This document shows positions 1,897-12,002 of a stretch of DNA of 36,421 bases, one piece after another; within the stretch, counting starts at the first letter, position 1, and every line of letters begins with the position of its first letter. Below the pieces are notes generated by a model. It was not told the DNA's origin and did no database searches. It saw only the letters and a list, made by a program, of their open reading frames with translations. Both the position numbers and the translations under genes were made by a program. The DNA comes from a virus (lineage: Duplodnaviria; Heunggongvirae; Uroviricota; Caudoviricetes). Location of the stretch: IMG/VR virus record IMGVR_UViG_2718218361_000002; one strand, given 5' to 3'.

Positions 1897-2910
1897 TTAC
1901 TCTACTGTGGACACTGTGTGGACACTCTCGGCTTCAGTACCACCTCTTAGCGGATTAAGAGAAATGGCGTCCTGAAGGTACTCTGGCGCAAAATGAGCGT
2001 AAACCATAGTTTGCTCAATCCGCGTGTGACCTAGTATCCGTTGTAGCGTGATAATACTTCCTCCATTAATCATGAAATGAGTGGCAAAGCTGTGCCTTAG
2101 TGCATGTGTGGCTTGCCCCGTTGGCAAATCCGGTTTTATTTCTTTCATTGTTCGTCTGAAGCGAGGGTAATCAGCATCAGGGAATAAAAAACCTCGTTTG
2201 TTATCCGCGATCATTTTGGCAACAGCCTCTGAGATCGGGACGGTGCGTGGTTTGTTTGTTTTCGTTTTAACAAACGTGACGCGGTTATGGATGATATTTT
2301 CTGCTTTCAAACGAGCTGCTTCTCCCCAACGTGCTCCTGTACTCAGGCAAAGAATCGCAATCTTTTTATTGTCGCCGTCAAGTGCTGCAAGCAGTAAGGC
2401 AATTTCTTCCTGTGTGAGATAGCCTGTTTCTGGTTTTTCCTCCTTAAGCCTCTTTGTCCCTCTGATAGGGTGCTCACCAAAGAATAACTCCGCTTCAATC
2501 AGGGCTGTAAACATGCCGCTAATACATGTTAAATCACGATTGATACTCGAAGGTTTAATACCCTGACTTCTTCGGGTGGCGCAGTACTGGCTGATAAGGG
2601 ATTTCGTGATTTGAAATGCGCATGGGTCATTCGTTATTTTTGTGAAGATTTCAATTTTTCCAAGATTAGATTTCCCATGCTCTTCGTGTTTACCCTTTAA
2701 ATCCCACCAGATCTGTGTCAGTTCCGACAGACGTCGTTTGTCTGTTGGTTTTGATAGCCATTCTTTATTGTGGTGGTTGTACAACGTGTATTTTTCGAAA
2801 GCGACAGCTTCGCTTTTCTTATCAAACTTCCTACGGATGCGTTTTCCGTTACGTCCAGTAGGGCGGATGTCCACTTCATATCGACCATCATCGAGTTTTT
2901 TGATTGCCAT
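1897..2910 (-). CDS. int: tyrosine integrase (P2 Int-like)
   Basis: 337-aa ORF; C-terminal HALRHSFATHF...LGHTRIEQTMVYAHF (R-H-R-Y catalytic pattern); immediately inside attL. Confidence 0.95.
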   Translation of the reverse strand: MAIKKLDDGRYEVDIRPTGRNGKRIRRKFDKKSEAVAFEKYTLYNHHNKEWLSKPTDKRRLSELTQIWWDLKGKHEEHGKSNLGKIEIFTKITNDPCAFQITKSLISQYCATRRSQGIKPSSINRDLTCISGMFTALIEAELFFGEHPIRGTKRLKEEKPETGYLTQEEIALLLAALDGDNKKIAILCLSTGARWGEAARLKAENIIHNRVTFVKTKTNKPRTVPISEAVAKMIADNKRGFLFPDADYPRFRRTMKEIKPDLPTGQATHALRHSFATHFMINGGSIITLQRILGHTRIEQTMVYAHFAPEYLQDAISLNPLRGGTEAESVHTVSTVE

Positions 2911-3025
2911 CAGAAAACCCTCCGAGTGGTACTTTTTTTTGCTACTACTAATCGCTTTTTTCGTGGTGGCTGAAATTTAGCCACCAATAGTAGACACTTG
3001 TGATGAATATATTCACGATAAATTG

Positions 3026-3325
3026 TTAACCAGTCTTTTGACCGGAGTGGGGCGACGTTGTTTCGTTTTGCCCAAAGTGTGCGAGAGCGGGCGCAATTTG
3101 CCCGGCTTCTGGAGCTACCTGATCAGTCATGAACCACAAAGTATATTTAGTAAATCTGGGATGTTGTAAGACCTTCATTATGGCTTCAACTCCAGCGTTT
3201 TTTGACCGGCTCTCATAGCTCGAAAGTGAGCTGTAGGCTACACCAGTTAATTCACTGAATTCTTTACGGTTTAACCTTTCAGATTCACGGATTAGCTTCA
3301 ACTTCTCCGAAACGTCTATTGACAT
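3026..3325 (-). CDS. C: immunity repressor C (HTH)
   Basis: ORF track 3026..3397; start chosen at internal ATG (plus-strand CAT 3323..3325), giving 99 aa; C-terminal TKYTLWFMT...QIAPALAHFGQNETTSPHSGQKTG as in P2 C; N-terminal DNA-binding part looks divergent. Confidence 0.8.
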   Translation of the reverse strand: MSIDVSEKLKLIRESERLNRKEFSELTGVAYSSLSSYESRSKNAGVEAIMKVLQHPRFTKYTLWFMTDQVAPEAGQIAPALAHFGQNETTSPHSGQKTG

Positions 3326-5486: not shown

Positions 5487-7752
5487 AGCCTCCGGGCGTT
5501 TTGTCCCTCCGTCAGCATTTGCCGCAGGCACCGGTAAGGCGTTTACCGGTGCTTATGCATGGAACGCGCCACGCGAGGCTGTCGGGCGCGAAAGACCCCT
5601 TACACGTGACGAGATGCGTCAGGTGCAAGGGGTTTTATCCACGATTAACCGTCTGCCTTACTTTTTGCGCTCGCTGTTTACTTCACGCTATGACTACATC
5701 CGGCGCAATAAAAGCCCGGTGCACGGGTTTTATTTCCTCACATCCACTTTTCAGCGTCGTTTATGGCCGCGCATTGAGCGTGTGAATCAGCGCCATGAAA
5801 TGAACACCGACGCGTCGTTGCTGTTTCTGGCAGAGCGCGACCAGTATGCGCGCCTGCCGGGGATGAATGACAAGGAGCTGAAAAAGTTTGCTGCCCGTAT
5901 CTCATCGCAGCTTTTCATGATGTATGAGGAACTCTGCGATGCCTGGGTGGATGCACATGGCGAAAAAGAATCGCTGTTTACGGATGAGGCGCAGGCTCAC
6001 CTCTATGGTCATGTTGCTGGCGCTGCACGTGCTTTCAATATTTCCCCGCTTTACTGGAAAAAATACCGTAAAGGGCAGATGACCACGAGGCAGGCATATT
6101 CTGCCATTGCCCGCCTGTTTAACGATGAGTGGTGGACTCATCAGCTTAAAGGCCAGCGTATGCGCTGGCATGAGGCGTTACTGATTGCTGTCGGGGAGGT
6201 CAATAAAGACCGTTCTCCTTATGCCAGTAAACATGCCATTCGTGATGTGCGTGCGCGCCGCCAGGCAAATCTGGAATTTCTTAAATCGTGTGACCTTGAA
6301 AACAGGGAAACCGGCGAGCGCATCGACCTTATCAGTAAGGTGATGGGCAGTATTTCTAATCCTGAAATTCGCCGGATGGAGCTGATGAACACCATTGCCG
6401 GTATTGAGCGTTACGCCGCCGCAGAGGGTGATGTGGGGATGTTTATCACGCTGACCGCGCCGTCAAAGTATCACCCGACACGTCAGGTCAGAAAAGGCGA
6501 AAGTAAAACCGTTCAGCTTAATCACGGCTGGAACGATGAGGCATTTAATCCAAAGGATGCGCAGCGTTATCTCTGCCGCATCTGGAGCCTGATGCGCACG
6601 GCATTCAAGGATAATGATTTACAGGTCTACGGTTTGCGTGTCGTCGAGCCACACCACGACGGAACGCCGCACTGGCATATGATGCTTTTTTGTAATCCAC
6701 GCCAGCGTAACCAGATTATTGAAATCATGCGTCGTTATGCGCTCAAAGAGGATGGCGACGAAAGAGGAGCCGCGCGAAACCGTTTTCAGGCAAAACACCT
6801 TAACCGGGGCGGTGCTGCGGGATATATCGCGAAATACATCTCAAAAAATATCGACGGCTATGCACTGGATGGTCAGCTCGATAACGATACCGGCAGACCG
6901 CTGAAAGACACTGCTGCGGCTGTTACCGCATGGGCGTCAACGTGGCGTATCCCGCAATTTAAAACGGTTGGCCTGCCGACAATGGGGGCTTACCGTGAAC
7001 TACGCAAACTGCCTCGCGGCGTCAGCATTGCTGATGAGTTTGACGAACGCGTCGAGGCTGTACGCGCCGCCGCAGACAGTGGTGATTTTGCGTTGTATAT
7101 CAGCGCGCAGGGTGGGGCAAATGTCCCGCGCGATTGTCAGACTGTCAGGGTTGCCCGTAGCCCGTCGGATGACGTTAACGAGTACGAGGAAGAAGTCGAG
7201 AGAGTGGTCGGCATTTACGCACCGCATCTCGGCGCGCGTCATATTCATATCACCAGAACCACGGACTGGCGCATTGTGCCGAAAGTGCCGGTCGTTGAGC
7301 CTTTGACTTTAAAAAGCGGCATCGCCGCGCCTCGGAGTCCTGTCAATAACTGTGGAAAGCTCACCGGTGGTGATACTTCGTTACCGGCTCCCACACCTTC
7401 TGAGCGCGCCGCAGCCGTGCTTAATCTGGTTGATGACGGTGTTATCGAATGGAATGACCCGGAGGTCGTGAGGGCGCTCAGGGGCGCATTAAAACACGGC
7501 CTGAGAACACCAAACCGTCAGCAAAGAAACGGAAGCCCGTTAAAACCGAATGAAATAGCGCCATCGGCCAGGCTGACCCGGTCGGAGCGTATGCAAATTA
7601 CCCGTATCCGTGTTGACCTTGCTCAGAACGGCATCTGGCCTCAGCGATGGGAACTTGAGGCGCTGGCGCGTGGAGCAACCGTAAATTATGACGGAAAAAA
7701 ATTCACGTATCTGGTCGCTGATGTGTGGCCGGGGTTCTCGTTACCCATTTGA
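5476..7752 (+). CDS. A: replication initiation protein A (rolling-circle nickase)
   Basis: ORF track 5434..7752; start placed at ATG 5476 (MAVKASGRFVPP...); ~758 aa; contains HWHMMLF (HUH-type motif) and tyrosine-rich GYIAKYISKNIDGY. Confidence 0.9.
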   Translation: MAVKASGRFVPPSAFAAGTGKAFTGAYAWNAPREAVGRERPLTRDEMRQVQGVLSTINRLPYFLRSLFTSRYDYIRRNKSPVHGFYFLTSTFQRRLWPRIERVNQRHEMNTDASLLFLAERDQYARLPGMNDKELKKFAARISSQLFMMYEELCDAWVDAHGEKESLFTDEAQAHLYGHVAGAARAFNISPLYWKKYRKGQMTTRQAYSAIARLFNDEWWTHQLKGQRMRWHEALLIAVGEVNKDRSPYASKHAIRDVRARRQANLEFLKSCDLENRETGERIDLISKVMGSISNPEIRRMELMNTIAGIERYAAAEGDVGMFITLTAPSKYHPTRQVRKGESKTVQLNHGWNDEAFNPKDAQRYLCRIWSLMRTAFKDNDLQVYGLRVVEPHHDGTPHWHMMLFCNPRQRNQIIEIMRRYALKEDGDERGAARNRFQAKHLNRGGAAGYIAKYISKNIDGYALDGQLDNDTGRPLKDTAAAVTAWASTWRIPQFKTVGLPTMGAYRELRKLPRGVSIADEFDERVEAVRAAADSGDFALYISAQGGANVPRDCQTVRVARSPSDDVNEYEEEVERVVGIYAPHLGARHIHITRTTDWRIVPKVPVVEPLTLKSGIAAPRSPVNNCGKLTGGDTSLPAPTPSERAAAVLNLVDDGVIEWNDPEVVRALRGALKHGLRTPNRQQRNGSPLKPNEIAPSARLTRSERMQITRIRVDLAQNGIWPQRWELEALARGATVNYDGKKFTYLVADVWPGFSLPI

Positions 7753-8012
7753 GTAAAAACACAACGTGATTTGATATGGCATTGAATGGCTTATGCGGAG
7801 CAGTTATGGGGCAGCAGAAGGTCAATAGCATGCTGAATTAGAAGGCTAAATGCTATTGAGTGACTAGCATGTCGGTAAGGACAGCCGTTTGATCCGGGTC
7901 ATAAAAGGCCATCCATTTAGTCTAATAAAATCATTGCGGGTAACCTTATGTCGACGCATAATTCGTCTTGAGCGAAGTCTTGTCAGTCTTTCATCGTATT
8001 GATGATGGGCGC

Positions 8013-8042
8013 AAAAAAACCACCCTGGCAGGTGGTTTTTTT
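8013..8042. terminator. bidirectional rho-independent terminator
   Basis: AAAAAAA-CCACC-ctggca-GGTGG-TTTTTTT; A-run upstream and T-run downstream. Confidence 0.7.
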
Positions 8043-8054
8043 GTTTGAAGCATA

Positions 8055-8168
8055 TTAAAGCATAATGCTGACATTGATATTACTGACGTTTACTGACAAA
8101 CCACTCGGACTACCGTTTGGATAGCCAAAGAGGGCCAGAACGAGAATGCAGTAATAGCATTTCTTCAT
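8055..8168 (-). CDS. small hydrophobic peptide (37 aa), candidate membrane peptide
   Basis: MKKCYYCILVLALFGYPNGSPSGLSVNVSNINVSIML; AGGAGG SD 5 nt before the ATG (plus-strand CAT 8166..8168); ends just before terminator 8013..8042; longer 88-aa reading exists but lacks an RBS. Confidence 0.3.
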   Translation of the reverse strand: MKKCYYCILVLALFGYPNGSPSGLSVNVSNINVSIML

Positions 8169-8646
8169 ATTGCCTCCTGTAAGTAGAGGGCAACTTCCAC
8201 CGGTATATGCGCTTGTTAGGTGGAATGACTTTTGAGCGAAGTCTTGCCCTGAAATAATGCTCTGTTTAAACGCAAAGTGATTTGGCATATCACCGAACAG
8301 AGAGCCGGAAAAACACAACATATAGTATGTCGTTGTTTCTAGACATACATTCTATGTTGTGTAACAAGGGCTTTGCATTAAACATGTTTGAGATTTTATT
8401 GATGTAGCTCAAAGTAAAAAACAGAGACTACGGATGATAAGGTCTTGAAAGCAATGTAAATTTTTTAAAGTTGCCAATTGCTTAAAAATGTACAGTTGCG
8501 GTATGGCGTACTTAAAAAGCTATGCATGCAACAAGTGAATGTTTTTGCATGCGCTGGGGATGTCCGTTCAGGCTGCGTGCGGTCAGGACTGGTGCGGATC
8601 CATAGTATCTATGCAACTGCATTAAAACCGCCCCGTGAAGCGGGCG

Positions 8647-8665
8647 GGCGAGGCGGGGAAAGCAC
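8647..8665. other. cos site (19-nt cohesive-end sequence)
   Basis: GGCGAGGCGGGGAAAGCAC, which I recall as the P2 cohesive-end sequence, in a GC-rich island inside AT-rich DNA. Confidence 0.7.
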
Positions 8666-8916
8666 CGCGCTCATGCAATGTGAAAATGTAATACCGATAG
8701 ACTTACCGTTTCAGAGTTAGGATGTTCATCATATTGAAGTAACATACGAGAGATTCAGCAGAGCGCAACAAGTTTGAGAAAACAGTCCATATATCTTAAC
8801 CTATTAGGACTGACGGAAAATGAAGCACTATTCTTCGTGGTTATTTAGTATAGTATTGACTTTTCAACACGATCAATGGTTTGATCAGTTCGTATGTAAT
8901 TGATTAAGGAAACTCA

Positions 8917-10350
8917 ATGAAAAAGCAAAGCGAAATTAACGTAAAAAAATTAGCATCATGGAGATTTTCATTTAAAAACATTGGGTGTATCTCTACAGGA
9001 GAAATTAATGCAAAACCTTTAACGCTTTTATGCGGAAAAAATAATACTGGTAAAACATGGGTTATGTATGGGTTATATGGCTTCCTAAATATGCCATCAC
9101 CATCTTTAAAATTGCCTCAAGTTGCAAATTTTGCCAAAACTCTTCGTGAAAATGGTAAGTTTGAATTAGATGTAATTGAGTGGATAAAAGATAATTTTAC
9201 GTTAATCAAAAGAGAATTTAATAAAGATTCATCTTTAATGCTTAAAGATGTATTCAACACTAATGATAAGGAAATTTTTTCTAATTCAACATTTGACTGG
9301 GTTATAGATGAAGAATCATTAGTATCAAGTGTTTATGAAAAAAAATTGGATGTTAGCCTCGTCATAGGAACCGGCAAAAAAGAAGTAATGCTATTATCCA
9401 AAGATAAAAATAGCAATATCATACAAATGACGCTGCTAGATTCTGCTTTCCCCAGAATTGATGGGTTTATAAACTTAACTCTAAGTCAGTTATTAAAGAT
9501 AGAGTATGATGAAAGCCCAGCATTTTTAATTCCCGCAGAAAGAAATGGCTTGCACCTTTTTTTCAATGAATTAAGTTCCAGAAGAACTGCGTTATTGCAC
9601 CACGCCTCAAAAGAACAGTTCGATCTGAACTCACTATTAATGGATGTAATGAAGTCTAAGTATTCTGCTCCTATAGCAAATTACATAGACTGGCTTAATG
9701 AAATTAAGGTTAATAGGAAAAATAAAAATGGCCAATTTCATAAATTAGCAGAAGAAGTAAAAAAAATAATTTCAGGAAAATATTCAGTTGATCCTGAAGG
9801 GCAGATTTATTTTTCAACGTATAAGAAAGGTAAGACACCTGCAAGTAAAATTGAACTTCATTTATCGTCATCCACTGTTAAAAGTTTGTTTGGCCTGTGG
9901 TTTTATTTAGAGCACCAAGCAAAAACTGGTGATATTTTAATGATTGACGAACCCGAGTTAAATTTACACCCGTCAAATCAGCGAGTAATTGCAAGATTTT
10001 TAGCAAAGCTAGTTAACTCTGGTATTCGGGTTATTGTTAGTACTCACAGTGATTATTTTGTAAAAGAAATCAATAGCTTGATTATGTTGCATGGCGTTTC
10101 TGAAAATATGATTGAAAAACGAAACGCTATCATGCAGAAGCAAGGGATTAGCATCGACTCAATTTTAGACTCTAACCTAGTCGCTGCGTATCTATTTGAT
10201 AATGGCTCAGTCAATGAAATGCAGAAGTCAAATGAAGGGATTAATGCTGTAACTTTTGATGAAGTAATTAATGCCATTAATGACGATAATGATGAAATAT
10301 ATTACTCCTTGGTGGAGAATGCCTCTGATAGTGAGGATGTAGATGAGTAA
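8917..10350 (+). CDS. ABC-type (AAA_15/AAA_21-like) ATPase, OLD/AbiLi/AriA/PtuA-like, family unassigned
   Basis: 477 aa; Walker A CGKNNTGKT, signature-like LSSSTVKSLFGL, Walker B DILMIDEPE, H-loop STHSDYF; ~280-aa insertion between Walker A and B; acidic C-terminal tail; SD TAAGGA; AT-rich. Confidence 0.85.
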   Translation: MKKQSEINVKKLASWRFSFKNIGCISTGEINAKPLTLLCGKNNTGKTWVMYGLYGFLNMPSPSLKLPQVANFAKTLRENGKFELDVIEWIKDNFTLIKREFNKDSSLMLKDVFNTNDKEIFSNSTFDWVIDEESLVSSVYEKKLDVSLVIGTGKKEVMLLSKDKNSNIIQMTLLDSAFPRIDGFINLTLSQLLKIEYDESPAFLIPAERNGLHLFFNELSSRRTALLHHASKEQFDLNSLLMDVMKSKYSAPIANYIDWLNEIKVNRKNKNGQFHKLAEEVKKIISGKYSVDPEGQIYFSTYKKGKTPASKIELHLSSSTVKSLFGLWFYLEHQAKTGDILMIDEPELNLHPSNQRVIARFLAKLVNSGIRVIVSTHSDYFVKEINSLIMLHGVSENMIEKRNAIMQKQGISIDSILDSNLVAAYLFDNGSVNEMQKSNEGINAVTFDEVINAINDDNDEIYYSLVENASDSEDVDE

Positions 10351-10915
10351 TATTATCAATGTAATACAAAGTTGCATCGATCCTACATTTCAATTAATGC
10401 GAGAGCAGGAATGCTGGGTTGTATGCGAAGAGAACCCAGGTGCTACAAATAAAAAATTACTGGTAAACGGAAATGGTATCTATGGATTTTCGCTAGATTC
10501 TAATAGTATTTCTAAACCAGTCTGGAAATTTTTAAAATCTTCTGCTTTACCAGGAGTATGCTCTGTTTGTGATGGAATTTTTGTTACGTCGCACAAAGAC
10601 GTAGATTATTTTATCGTAATAGATCTCAAATCTTATAACTCAAATGGTGCGGCTAAACAGGTAGTTACTGGCATTCATTTTTGTAAGTGGCTATATTCTG
10701 TATTGAATTTACATGGGCATTTGTCAAGAAAAGTGGATTACATTGGTGTAATAAGTAAATTATCGAGGAGGCAGCAATCAGCTAAAAAAACAACTGTTCG
10801 CTCGCAATTGCCTCCTCCTGAAATTTGCTATAATTATCCTGTGTTTACATTGGAAAACTATAACAGATTATCACTGGCGCATATTTGTGACTTTATATAC
10901 AATATGAAAAAATAA
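10343..10915 (+). CDS. small partner protein (190 aa), possible TOPRIM-like or PD-(D/E)xK-like nuclease, family unassigned
   Basis: ATG overlaps the ATPase stop by 8 nt, with GAGGA SD; motifs VVCEEN, CSVCDG, HKDVDYFIVIDLK; AT-rich. Confidence 0.8.
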   Translation: MSNIINVIQSCIDPTFQLMREQECWVVCEENPGATNKKLLVNGNGIYGFSLDSNSISKPVWKFLKSSALPGVCSVCDGIFVTSHKDVDYFIVIDLKSYNSNGAAKQVVTGIHFCKWLYSVLNLHGHLSRKVDYIGVISKLSRRQQSAKKTTVRSQLPPPEICYNYPVFTLENYNRLSLAHICDFIYNMKK

Positions 10916-10973: not shown

Positions 10974-12002
10974 TTAATTATCGTCTAAAGAGTAATTTTT
11001 GAATTGAATAACTTCGGCGCTGAGCCAGCCGTTTATCTCGCGGATCCTGTCCTGTAGCGGGATAAGCTCATTGCGGACAAAGACCTTTGCCACTTTCTCA
11101 ATATCACCCAGTGACCCGACGTTCTCCGGCTTGCCGCCCATCAACTGAAAGGGGATGCGGTGCGCGTCCAGCAGGTCAGCGGCGCTGGCTTTTTTGATAT
11201 TAAAAAAATCGTCCTTCGTCGCCACTTCACTGAGGGGGATAATTTTAATGCCGTCGGCTTTCCCCTGTGGGGCATAGAGAAACAGGTTTTTAAAGTTGTT
11301 GCGACCTTTCGACTTGACCATGTTTTCGCGAAGCATTTCGATATCGTTGCGATCCTGCACGGCATCAGTGACGTACATGATGTATCCGGCATGAGCGCCG
11401 TTTTCGTAATACTTGCGGCGGAACAGCGTGGCTGACTCATTCAGCCAGGCAGAGTTAAGGGCGCTGAGATATTCCGGCAGGCCGTACAGCTCCTGATTGA
11501 TATCCGGCTCCAGCAGGTGAAACACGGAGCCGGGCGCGAAGGCTGTCGGCTCGTTGAAGGACGGCACCCACCAGTAAACATCCTCCTCCACGCCACGGCG
11601 GGTATATTTTGCCGGCGAGGTTTCCAGCCTGATAACCTTACCGGTGGTGCTGTAACGCTTTTCCAGAAACGCATTACCGAACACCAGAAAATCCAGCACA
11701 AAACGGCTGAAATCCTGCTGGGAAAGCCACGGGTGCGGGATAAACGTTGAAGCCAGAATATTACGTTTGACGTAAATCGGTGAGCTGTGATGCACGGCAG
11801 CACGCAGGCTTTTCGCCAGACCGGTAAAGCTGACCGGTGGCTCATACCATCTGCCGTTACTGATGCACTCGACGTAATCCAGAATGTCACGCCGGTCGAG
11901 TACCGGCACCGGCTCACCAAAGGTGAATGCCTCCATTTTCGGGGCGCTGGCGGTCATTTTTTTTGCCGCAGGTTGCGGTGTTTTCCCTTTTTTCTTGCTC
12001 AT
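10974..12002 (-). CDS. Q: portal protein
   Basis: 342 aa; MSKKKGKTPQPAAK...; P2 gpQ-like. Confidence 0.95.
   Translation of the reverse strand: MSKKKGKTPQPAAKKMTASAPKMEAFTFGEPVPVLDRRDILDYVECISNGRWYEPPVSFTGLAKSLRAAVHHSSPIYVKRNILASTFIPHPWLSQQDFSRFVLDFLVFGNAFLEKRYSTTGKVIRLETSPAKYTRRGVEEDVYWWVPSFNEPTAFAPGSVFHLLEPDINQELYGLPEYLSALNSAWLNESATLFRRKYYENGAHAGYIMYVTDAVQDRNDIEMLRENMVKSKGRNNFKNLFLYAPQGKADGIKIIPLSEVATKDDFFNIKKASAADLLDAHRIPFQLMGGKPENVGSLGDIEKVAKVFVRNELIPLQDRIREINGWLSAEVIQFKNYSLDDN

Follow-up and report, generated by a model that had tools for sequence, protein, structure and literature searches.

A probable type I toxin-antitoxin-like cassette with a par-like layout in a P2-like phage and on enterobacterial plasmids

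Type I toxin-antitoxin (TA) loci are generally recognized by a small hydrophobic gene of under about 60 amino acids (aa) that is truly coding, and by an adjacent small RNA (sRNA) gene complementary to the toxin mRNA. A plasmid- and prophage-borne example is hok-sok, in which a small membrane toxin is silenced by an antisense RNA and which acts in post-segregational killing and phage exclusion; tisB-istR-1 is a case related to zorO-orzO in the place at which the sRNA binds. For zorO-orzO, an uninterrupted duplex of 15 nucleotides (nt), starting at the 5' end of the sRNA, suffices for repression (PMC3919570). In the general scheme, the inactive mRNA has its ribosome-binding site (RBS) sequestered, and the sRNA's point of action is an element upstream (PMC11228461). 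TimP has 38-41 aa, with a hydrophobic, signal-anchor-like N-terminus and a polar, variable C-terminus, and the 5' end of its sRNA binds the 5' untranslated region (UTR) by pairing (PMC7667032). The promoters of the par locus are convergent and its bidirectional terminator is shared; the locus further contains oppositely transcribed direct repeats and a stem that sequesters the Shine-Dalgarno (SD) sequence (PMC7472228). Here we analysed a 36,421-nt stretch of DNA (the window; IMG/VR record IMGVR_UViG_2718218361_000002) that represents a P2-like (Peduovirus) phage or prophage. Between its gene A, which codes for the replication endonuclease, and cos lies a cassette with a 37-codon gene for a hydrophobic peptide, a predicted convergent sRNA and a 15-bp direct repeat. 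This is probably a type I TA-like cassette laid out like par of plasmid pAD1, with an unrelated peptide.

The comparison of the window with diverged homologues showed that the cassette is conserved, that it bears a coding signature, complementarity and strand-specific structure, and that it is mobile. An initial annotation of the window had proposed a gene for a type I toxin or a small membrane peptide, together with regulatory repeats, and every comparative test that we ran on the sequences favours this proposal. The features are compiled in Table 1.

Table 1 Features of the cassette in the window (position 1 is the first letter of the stretch).
Feature	Positions	Strand	Details
Whole cassette	7889..8464		homologous to Klebsiella/Enterobacter plasmid, Citrobacter and Kluyvera contig copies
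Predicted sRNA promoter	7934..7962	+	-35 TTGCGG 7934-7939, 17-nt spacer, -10 CATAAT 7957-7962
Direct repeat, copy 1	7968..7982	+	exact TTGAGCGAAGTCTTG; core invariant in all homologues; predicted sRNA 5' seed
Predicted antitoxin-like sRNA, about 75 nt	7969..8046	+	5' seed, stem-loop 2, terminator hairpin
Stem-loop 2 (SL2)	7986..8010	+	compensatory changes in 5/8 pairs
Bidirectional intrinsic terminator	8012..8043	both	A7-CCACC-CTGGCA-GGTGG-T7
Small open reading frame (ORF), 37 codons plus stop, candidate membrane toxin	8055..8168	-	ATG 8168-8166, stop 8057-8055; MKKCYYCILVLALFGYPNGSPSGLSVNVSNINVSIML
SD sequence AGGAGG	8173..8178	-	4-nt spacer to ATG; GGAGG core and ATG invariant
Anti-SD segment UUGCCCUCU	8185..8193	-	pairs with AGGAGGCAA; one pair covaries
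Direct repeat, copy 2	8232..8246	-	reverse complement CAAGACUUCGCUCAA; predicted sRNA target, mRNA 5' UTR
Invariant 5' UTR hairpin	8260..8302	-	CUCUGUU...AACAGAG, inner stem GGUGAU/AUCACU
Candidate mRNA promoter	8349..8377	-	TGCAAA 8377-8372, 17-nt spacer, TAGAAT 8354-8349

Peptide gene, predicted antisense RNA and direct repeats

The cassette is located in the 897-bp spacer that follows the stop of gene A at 7752 and that is devoid of any RefSeq annotation. The 37-aa reverse-strand ORF with an AGGAGG motif, as reported initially, is present there, one base off the coordinates then implied. Its frame is the only one that is open in all homologues on either strand, and almost every distinct homologue that we examined has 37 codons, that of Kluyvera 38. 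Between the window and plasmid copies, the differences fall on the three codon positions as 5:9:17, 6:5:13 and 9:9:17, an excess at the third position. The peptide retains a conserved core (CILVL[AT]LFGYPxG..SG.S..VS.I) and is about 60% identical between the phage and the plasmid clade. It is hydrophobic (grand average of hydropathy 0.77-0.95), is charged at residues 2-3 only and ends in an Asn/Ser-rich tail. These findings support a conserved coding gene, as far as comparison can tell. The ORF finder gave only an 88-aa ORF (8055-8321), of which the 37-aa frame is the tail. We rejected this longer ORF because eight of ten homologues have in-frame stops upstream, which also marks the extension as due to chance.

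On the opposite strand, the two hexamers of the predicted sRNA promoter, TTGCG[GA] and CATAAT, do not vary in ten diverged homologues (five genera), whereas the intervening spacer changes in sequence and stays at 17 nt. Copy 1 of the repeat starts 6-7 nt past the -10 hexamer, a position that would make it the extreme 5' end of a terminator-ended RNA. This predicted RNA folds with a minimum free energy of -29.3 kcal/mol (z = -4.45 versus shuffles), and a three-part fold consisting of a free or weakly paired seed, a stem-loop and the terminator was found in eight of the ten homologues. The sequence of SL2 varies between clades and its pairing is kept: the covariation score was 0.220 versus 0.161 in shuffles (1 of 500 reached it), and controls slid along the sequence scored 0.05-0.13. 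In seven of ten homologues, SL2 was 4-6 kcal/mol more stable on the plus strand than on its complement, which is due to G-U pairs. Given this strand-specific stability, the selected SL2 structure belongs to a plus-strand transcript. A search of Rfam 15 returned no match at the gathering score for the sRNA; the only sub-threshold matches, RNAI and Phe_leader (25 bits versus 47-55 needed), are attributable to the terminator.

A consensus scan listed a single promoter-like match near the cassette, CTGACA-17-AATTAT on the minus strand (7986-7958), which overlaps repeat 1. We judged it to be an echo of the plus-strand promoter: the reverse complement of the conserved CATAAT serves as its -10, the -35 is variable (CTGACA, CTAGCA, CTGGCA), and the site would direct transcription outward from the cassette. 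Antisense transcription from this site may reach into the 3' end of gene A.

Both predicted transcripts end at the same terminator. The strong bidirectional terminator that had been placed at 8013..8042 was recovered one base off, with perfectly complementary arms of 13 nt each (8012-8024 and 8031-8043). It varies only at a single base of the loop and by an A/T run that is one base longer in one homologue. The predicted sRNA and the peptide mRNA are fully complementary across the 30-34 nt of the terminator hairpin, and the sRNA loop CUGGCA is complementary to the mRNA loop UGCCAG. A simple terminator scan did not list this terminator, presumably because the A/T runs pair, are counted as stem and leave no T tail.

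The 15-bp direct repeat described initially between gene A and cos is exact, and we found no third copy of TTGAGCGAAGTCTTG with up to two mismatches on either strand of the window. Pairs of exact 15-mer direct repeats are expected by chance about 0.6 times in 36 kb and about 4e-4 times within the 900-bp spacer. With about 0.6 pairs expected in 36 kb, the repeat alone is weak evidence; we take it as real because both copies are jointly conserved in diverged homologues. Both are invariant over at least 13 nt, with flanks of about 75% identity, and in the plasmid clade the invariant repeat extends to 17 nt (TGAGCGAAGTCTTGCCA). In the peptide mRNA, copy 2 is read as CAAGACUUCGCUCAA, about 53 nt upstream of the SD. 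RNAduplex anchored the 5' end of the sRNA on this target in ten of ten homologues. A metagenome scan that used a different conserved element as pattern (the UTR hairpin at 8260-8302) added 31 loci. Over 75 loci we counted nine seed/target haplotypes, each with 14-17 continuous pairs. The two copies differ internally in four cases (the window clade, the type represented by locus L049, Kluyvera and one of two cassette copies at locus L068). All four differences are transitions: in the predicted orientation each leaves a G·U wobble, and with the opposite strands transcribed each would be an A·C mismatch, a bias that agrees in direction with the strand bias of SL2. Together, the complementarity supports the prediction that each repeat supplies one half of an RNA-RNA pairing site.

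A further, imperfect direct repeat of 30 nt (73% identity) connects 7757-7786, just past the gene A stop, with 8268-8297 in the UTR hairpin. It is probably due to chance, as the two stretches resemble each other less in the other phage clade.

For the peptide mRNA, the homologues conserve both TA[GA]AAT and (A)TGCAAA, and the distance between the two is constant. We tentatively place the transcription start near 8342, which would give a 5' UTR of about 173 nt; the placement is tentative because the -35 is weak and because conserved blocks continue upstream to about 8464. These blocks (8400-8464, minus strand: AAATTTACATT, TTTTTAC[TC]TTG and TCAATAAAA) are common to phage, Klebsiella-plasmid and Kluyvera copies, and they could represent an UP element, a second promoter or a regulator site. 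In the consensus fold, the anti-SD segment pairs with GGAGGC, and the predicted unpaired probability of the SD is 0.02-0.34 in all homologues. The target core lies partly in the loop of a short GACU/AGUC hairpin, and one UTR stem covaries (UUCCACC/GGUGGAA versus UCCGCC/GGCGGA). Within the invariant hairpin at 8260-8302, the inner stem pairs an SD-like sequence with a sequence resembling the 3' end of 16S rRNA and does so without covariation. This hairpin could act as a ribosome standby or decoy element.

Extent, distribution and natural variants of the cassette

Aligning the window with the plasmid and contig loci (blastn, 71-75% identity) delimited a discrete cassette of about 540 bp: the alignments begin at 7889-7924 and end at 8420-8464, and homology ends at those limits. 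Relative to the plasmid copies, homology extends 45-80 bp past repeat 1 and 175-220 bp past repeat 2. Since it continues outside both, the repeats are internal to the mobile unit and not its boundaries, and the initial suggestion that they are remnants of an insertion event was not borne out.

Sensitive blastn detected the cassette on large plasmids at 72-77% identity. With the peptide as tblastn query, 392 plasmids were found to carry it (390 from Klebsiella and 2 from Enterobacter), 332 of them conjugative; pKPN-498 is one of the Klebsiella plasmids with the cassette. Citrobacter freundii and Kluyvera georgiana came up as further carriers in a genome scan at species level. Among complete genomes of Escherichia coli, 152 of 5426 carry the cassette, invariably downstream of gene A, and their spacers fall into two clades of about 99% and about 86-90% identity. 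As the 3' end of gene A is present in 1406-1682 E. coli genomes, roughly 10% of those with a P2-like gene A have the cassette. In all 152 carriers, the spacer is blank in the annotation of the Prokaryotic Genome Annotation Pipeline (PGAP). Carriers include KO11FL (NC_017660.1, 2624627-2625125), which we take to be an E. coli W derivative, an ST131 isolate (NZ_OX637964) and O121 Shiga toxin-producing strains, and strain ST2350 (NZ_CP031321) shows 100% identity to the window in this region. The spacer also occurs in three deposited phage records, OU784750/NC_070905 (one P2 assembly under two accessions) and OQ383618. By sequence comparison, phage P2 itself is without the cassette. The same holds for plasmid pKPN3 of K. 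pneumoniae MGH 78578, the only replicon of this strain that we looked at; differential RNA-seq of the strain has been published (PMC10907235).

In many complete E. coli assemblies (e.g. NZ_CM130730, NZ_CP074033 and NZ_CP148323), the spacer is found at exactly 2278-3174, so that base 1 of these chromosome records is also base 1 of prophage gene A. It appears that assembly-rotation tools take the P2 replication endonuclease as the origin gene, and the shared position is then a coordinate artefact.

The flanks of the cassette differ in each context. On plasmids they comprise insertion sequence elements, ABC transporters, an exonuclease or TraX, and the phage neighbours vary between PD-T4-4, retron Ec48 and ImmA/IrrE-type genes. 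In the window, the P2 cos sequence GGCGAGGCGGGGAAAGCAC is located at 8650-8668, and the neighbouring stretch matches cosR of phage P2. Downstream of cos and before the portal gene Q (minus strand, 10974-12002), two plus-strand genes at 8917-10915 form a PD-T4-4 anti-phage system, a cargo of the gpA-gpQ hotspot. The 477-aa AAA_15/AAA_21 ATPase matched PD-T4-4_A with E = 2e-112 and its 190-aa partner protein matched PD-T4-4_B with E = 1e-15.

Two natural variants were found among the metagenomic loci. In L072, from a human gut contig (OWPP01003510; about 3082-3300 of the reversed locus), the segment between the repeats, with ORF and terminator, has been lost. In this locus, the mRNA promoter and 5' UTR are followed by a single hybrid repeat (GGTAAGACTTCGCTCACGG) and then directly by the sRNA promoter region. 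It is a deletion derivative that arose by recombination between the two repeats, which shows that the repeats can bring about loss of the peptide gene and provides the comparison of presence and absence that the initial annotation had suggested. It is the sole locus without the ORF that we found. All loci with two repeats have the ORF, so that the repeat is not a filler of P2-like genomes that occurs independently of it. L068 (Ga0268256_1001162) harbours two diverged cassette copies 2.9 kb apart that encode differing peptide variants, and its seed difference is a G·U wobble. Several type I loci are likewise duplicated.

Proposed mechanism and alternative explanations

From these observations we infer transcript ends, repression, membrane toxicity and biological role as follows. 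The mRNA, a minus-strand transcript of some 330 nt (about 8342 to 8013), would encode the almost uncharged, hydrophobic 37-aa peptide, which is probably anchored in the inner membrane via its N-terminal segment. The long 5' UTR of this mRNA would hold the SD in a local hairpin. The seed of the convergent plus-strand sRNA (about 7969 to 8046) would form a duplex of 14-17 nt with the reverse complement of repeat 2, and the complementary terminator loops of the two RNAs could make the first contact. Translation would then be blocked because pairing either hides a standby or activating element or leads to cleavage by RNase III; repression at an upstream element or by RNase III would follow precedents (PMC11228461, PMC3919570). 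Once sRNA synthesis stops, upon loss of the cassette or when an invading phage shuts off transcription, the peptide would be made and would arrest growth or kill the cell. The outcome would be stabilization of the plasmid or prophage, and perhaps abortive infection.

Several observations weigh against a type I TA-like cassette. Both predicted promoters have a weak -35 (3/6) and were unlisted by the consensus scan. The wobble argument comprises four events only, for which our own arithmetic gives a chance of about 0.06. The peptide fits no known toxin family (0 families in Pfam, NCBIfam and PADLOC): it had no Pfam match at E up to 10, including the Fst/Ldr and Hok_Gef models, it was unmatched by the models of Hok, Ldr, TisB, Ibs, ShoB, ZorO, DinQ and other curated toxin families, and a PHROGs search gave one non-significant match (E = 0.34). 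Its hydrophobic core spans about 13 residues, and it has no charged tail of the kind typical of many type I toxins. In the UTR, most of the conserved helices are invariant and thereby neutral on structure, and the target ends well upstream of the SD, so that the pairing site is outside the RBS. We also considered a switch in which sRNA binding frees the anti-SD segment to close the SD. When the target region was constrained in silico to be unpaired and SD accessibility recomputed, the predicted accessibility was unchanged in every homologue, and this version of the mechanism was dropped as unsupported.

The same ORF and sRNA evidence would be expected if peptide and sRNA were real and interacting and the peptide were a non-toxic small membrane modulator tuned by the sRNA, such as a lysogenic-conversion or exclusion factor. 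We regard this as possible, though unlikely. The short hydrophobic core and the uncharged Asn/Ser-rich tail are atypical of pore-forming type I toxins, and TimP, which is of similar design, allows growth at its native expression level (PMC7667032). However, the spread over conjugative plasmids and prophages in unrelated contexts suits a toxic module better, as does the tight, multi-layer silencing by a sequestered SD and an sRNA. The contig with two copies and the natural deletion that removes exactly the ORF are likewise better explained by an addictive or toxic module. A role of the repeats as DNA sites, be it operators of a phage or plasmid protein or recombination sites, would fit their exactness and conservation and the one metagenomic contig whose deletion ends in them, but it is improbable. 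No protein is common to the phage and plasmid contexts, a G·U bias in one transcription orientation would be meaningless for a DNA site, repeat 1 lies exactly at the predicted sRNA 5' end, repeat 2 is located in the loop of a UTR hairpin, and any repeat of 15-17 bp can cause one deletion.

If the terminator alone were functional and ended the P2 early operon after gene A, with ORF, repeat and sRNA as chance or hitch-hiking sequence, the empty PGAP annotation in 152 E. coli genomes would be accounted for, as would the finding that the peptide forms only two protein clusters among 5.8 billion proteins; a terminator is also expected after gene A. However, ORFs under about 40-50 codons are skipped by gene callers, which explains such sparse annotation. 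Conservation of the cassette extends to plasmids without gene A, the ORF shows coding-type substitution and fixed length, and SL2 covaries, which makes this explanation very improbable. We give hardly any credence to the view that the repeats are the target-site duplication or scar of a terminator-plus-ORF insertion downstream of gene A. The repeats do bracket terminator and ORF, and the segment between them can be lost, but the phage-plasmid homology (7889-8464) exceeds the repeats and includes the promoter-like blocks and the 5' UTR, and both copies are under purifying selection across genera. A type I TA-like cassette thus remains the reading that we favour.

A bolder version of this reading is doubtful at present. 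According to it, the cassette would belong to an undescribed par-type family of enterobacteria that serves as an addiction module of Klebsiella resistance and virulence plasmids and, in P2-like prophages, as a guard at the border of the gpA-gpQ defence hotspot. Here, the early gene A transcript of the phage, which reads into the same terminator, would carry the antitoxin sequence in its 3' end, so that the toxin would stay silent during the phage's own lytic growth and fire when a competing phage shuts off transcription of host and prophage, with abortive infection as the outcome.

Our literature search yielded no paper, Rfam family or annotation for the cassette; its coverage was partial, and an earlier description is possible. 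Two systematic studies of the P2 gpA-gpQ hotspot (PMC9122126, PMC13586616), both protein-based, do not mention it. A 37-codon gene with an sRNA partner is invisible to protein-based hotspot surveys as well as to routine annotation. Should the two genes form a working TA pair, the peptide would represent a new toxin family. The cassette would then be a candidate stability determinant on about 390 large, mostly conjugative Klebsiella plasmids, and a constant neighbour of swappable defence cargo in about 10% of the E. coli genomes with a P2-like gene A.

Comparison with known systems

With regard to type I TA loci in general, the comparative data point to a small, hydrophobic and truly coding gene, and an adjacent sRNA gene complementary to its mRNA was found in silico. 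Like hok-sok, the cassette is a plasmid- and prophage-borne gene for a small hydrophobic peptide with a predicted antisense RNA. In contrast to it, Sok overlaps the mok/hok leader in cis, and hok mRNA is activated by 3' trimming.

The peptide design resembles that of timP-timR (the ryfA locus), with a short N-terminal resemblance (MK..C.CI[LV][VL][IL]). Homology to TimP, as suggested by eye (C.CI[LV][VL][IL] and S.SG), was not supported: BLASTP found nothing, and hhalign gave a probability of 7.8% over 11 columns. Membership in TimP/RyfA was dismissed as well, as there was no NCBIfam match even though PGAP names TimP proteins, no nucleotide similarity and no match to Rfam RF00126 at E up to 1. 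Unlike the predicted sRNA of the cassette, timR is divergent, and timPR is a core-genome locus. The cassette as predicted resembles zorO-orzO of E. coli O157:H7 in that the sRNA uses its extreme 5' end for a pairing of about 15-18 nt, located in a long toxin 5' UTR at a good distance upstream of the RBS. It differs in that the sRNA of zorO-orzO is divergent, lies upstream and has no terminator in common with the toxin mRNA, and the peptides are unrelated.

The layout is closest to par of the Enterococcus faecalis plasmid pAD1 (RNA I/fst - RNA II) and its relatives in Firmicutes, from which the cassette nevertheless departs in several respects. It has one repeat pair in place of DRa and DRb, and its pairing site is far enough upstream of the SD to leave the initiation region uncovered, contrary to the par definition. 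The peptide is without the Fst/Ldr signature (P/D/S/TXXXG, a conserved Trp and a charged C-terminus), the Trp being present in the plasmid clade only, and the hosts are Enterobacteriaceae. We know of no earlier par-style, convergent architecture with a shared terminator in this family of bacteria, in which the cassette would be the first if it is a working pair. What it shares with par are the (here predicted) convergent promoters and the one shared bidirectional terminator with complementary hairpins, a second pairing region made up of direct repeats that are read oppositely, an SD hidden by an intramolecular stem, a peptide length of about 35 aa and the occurrence on both plasmids and phages.

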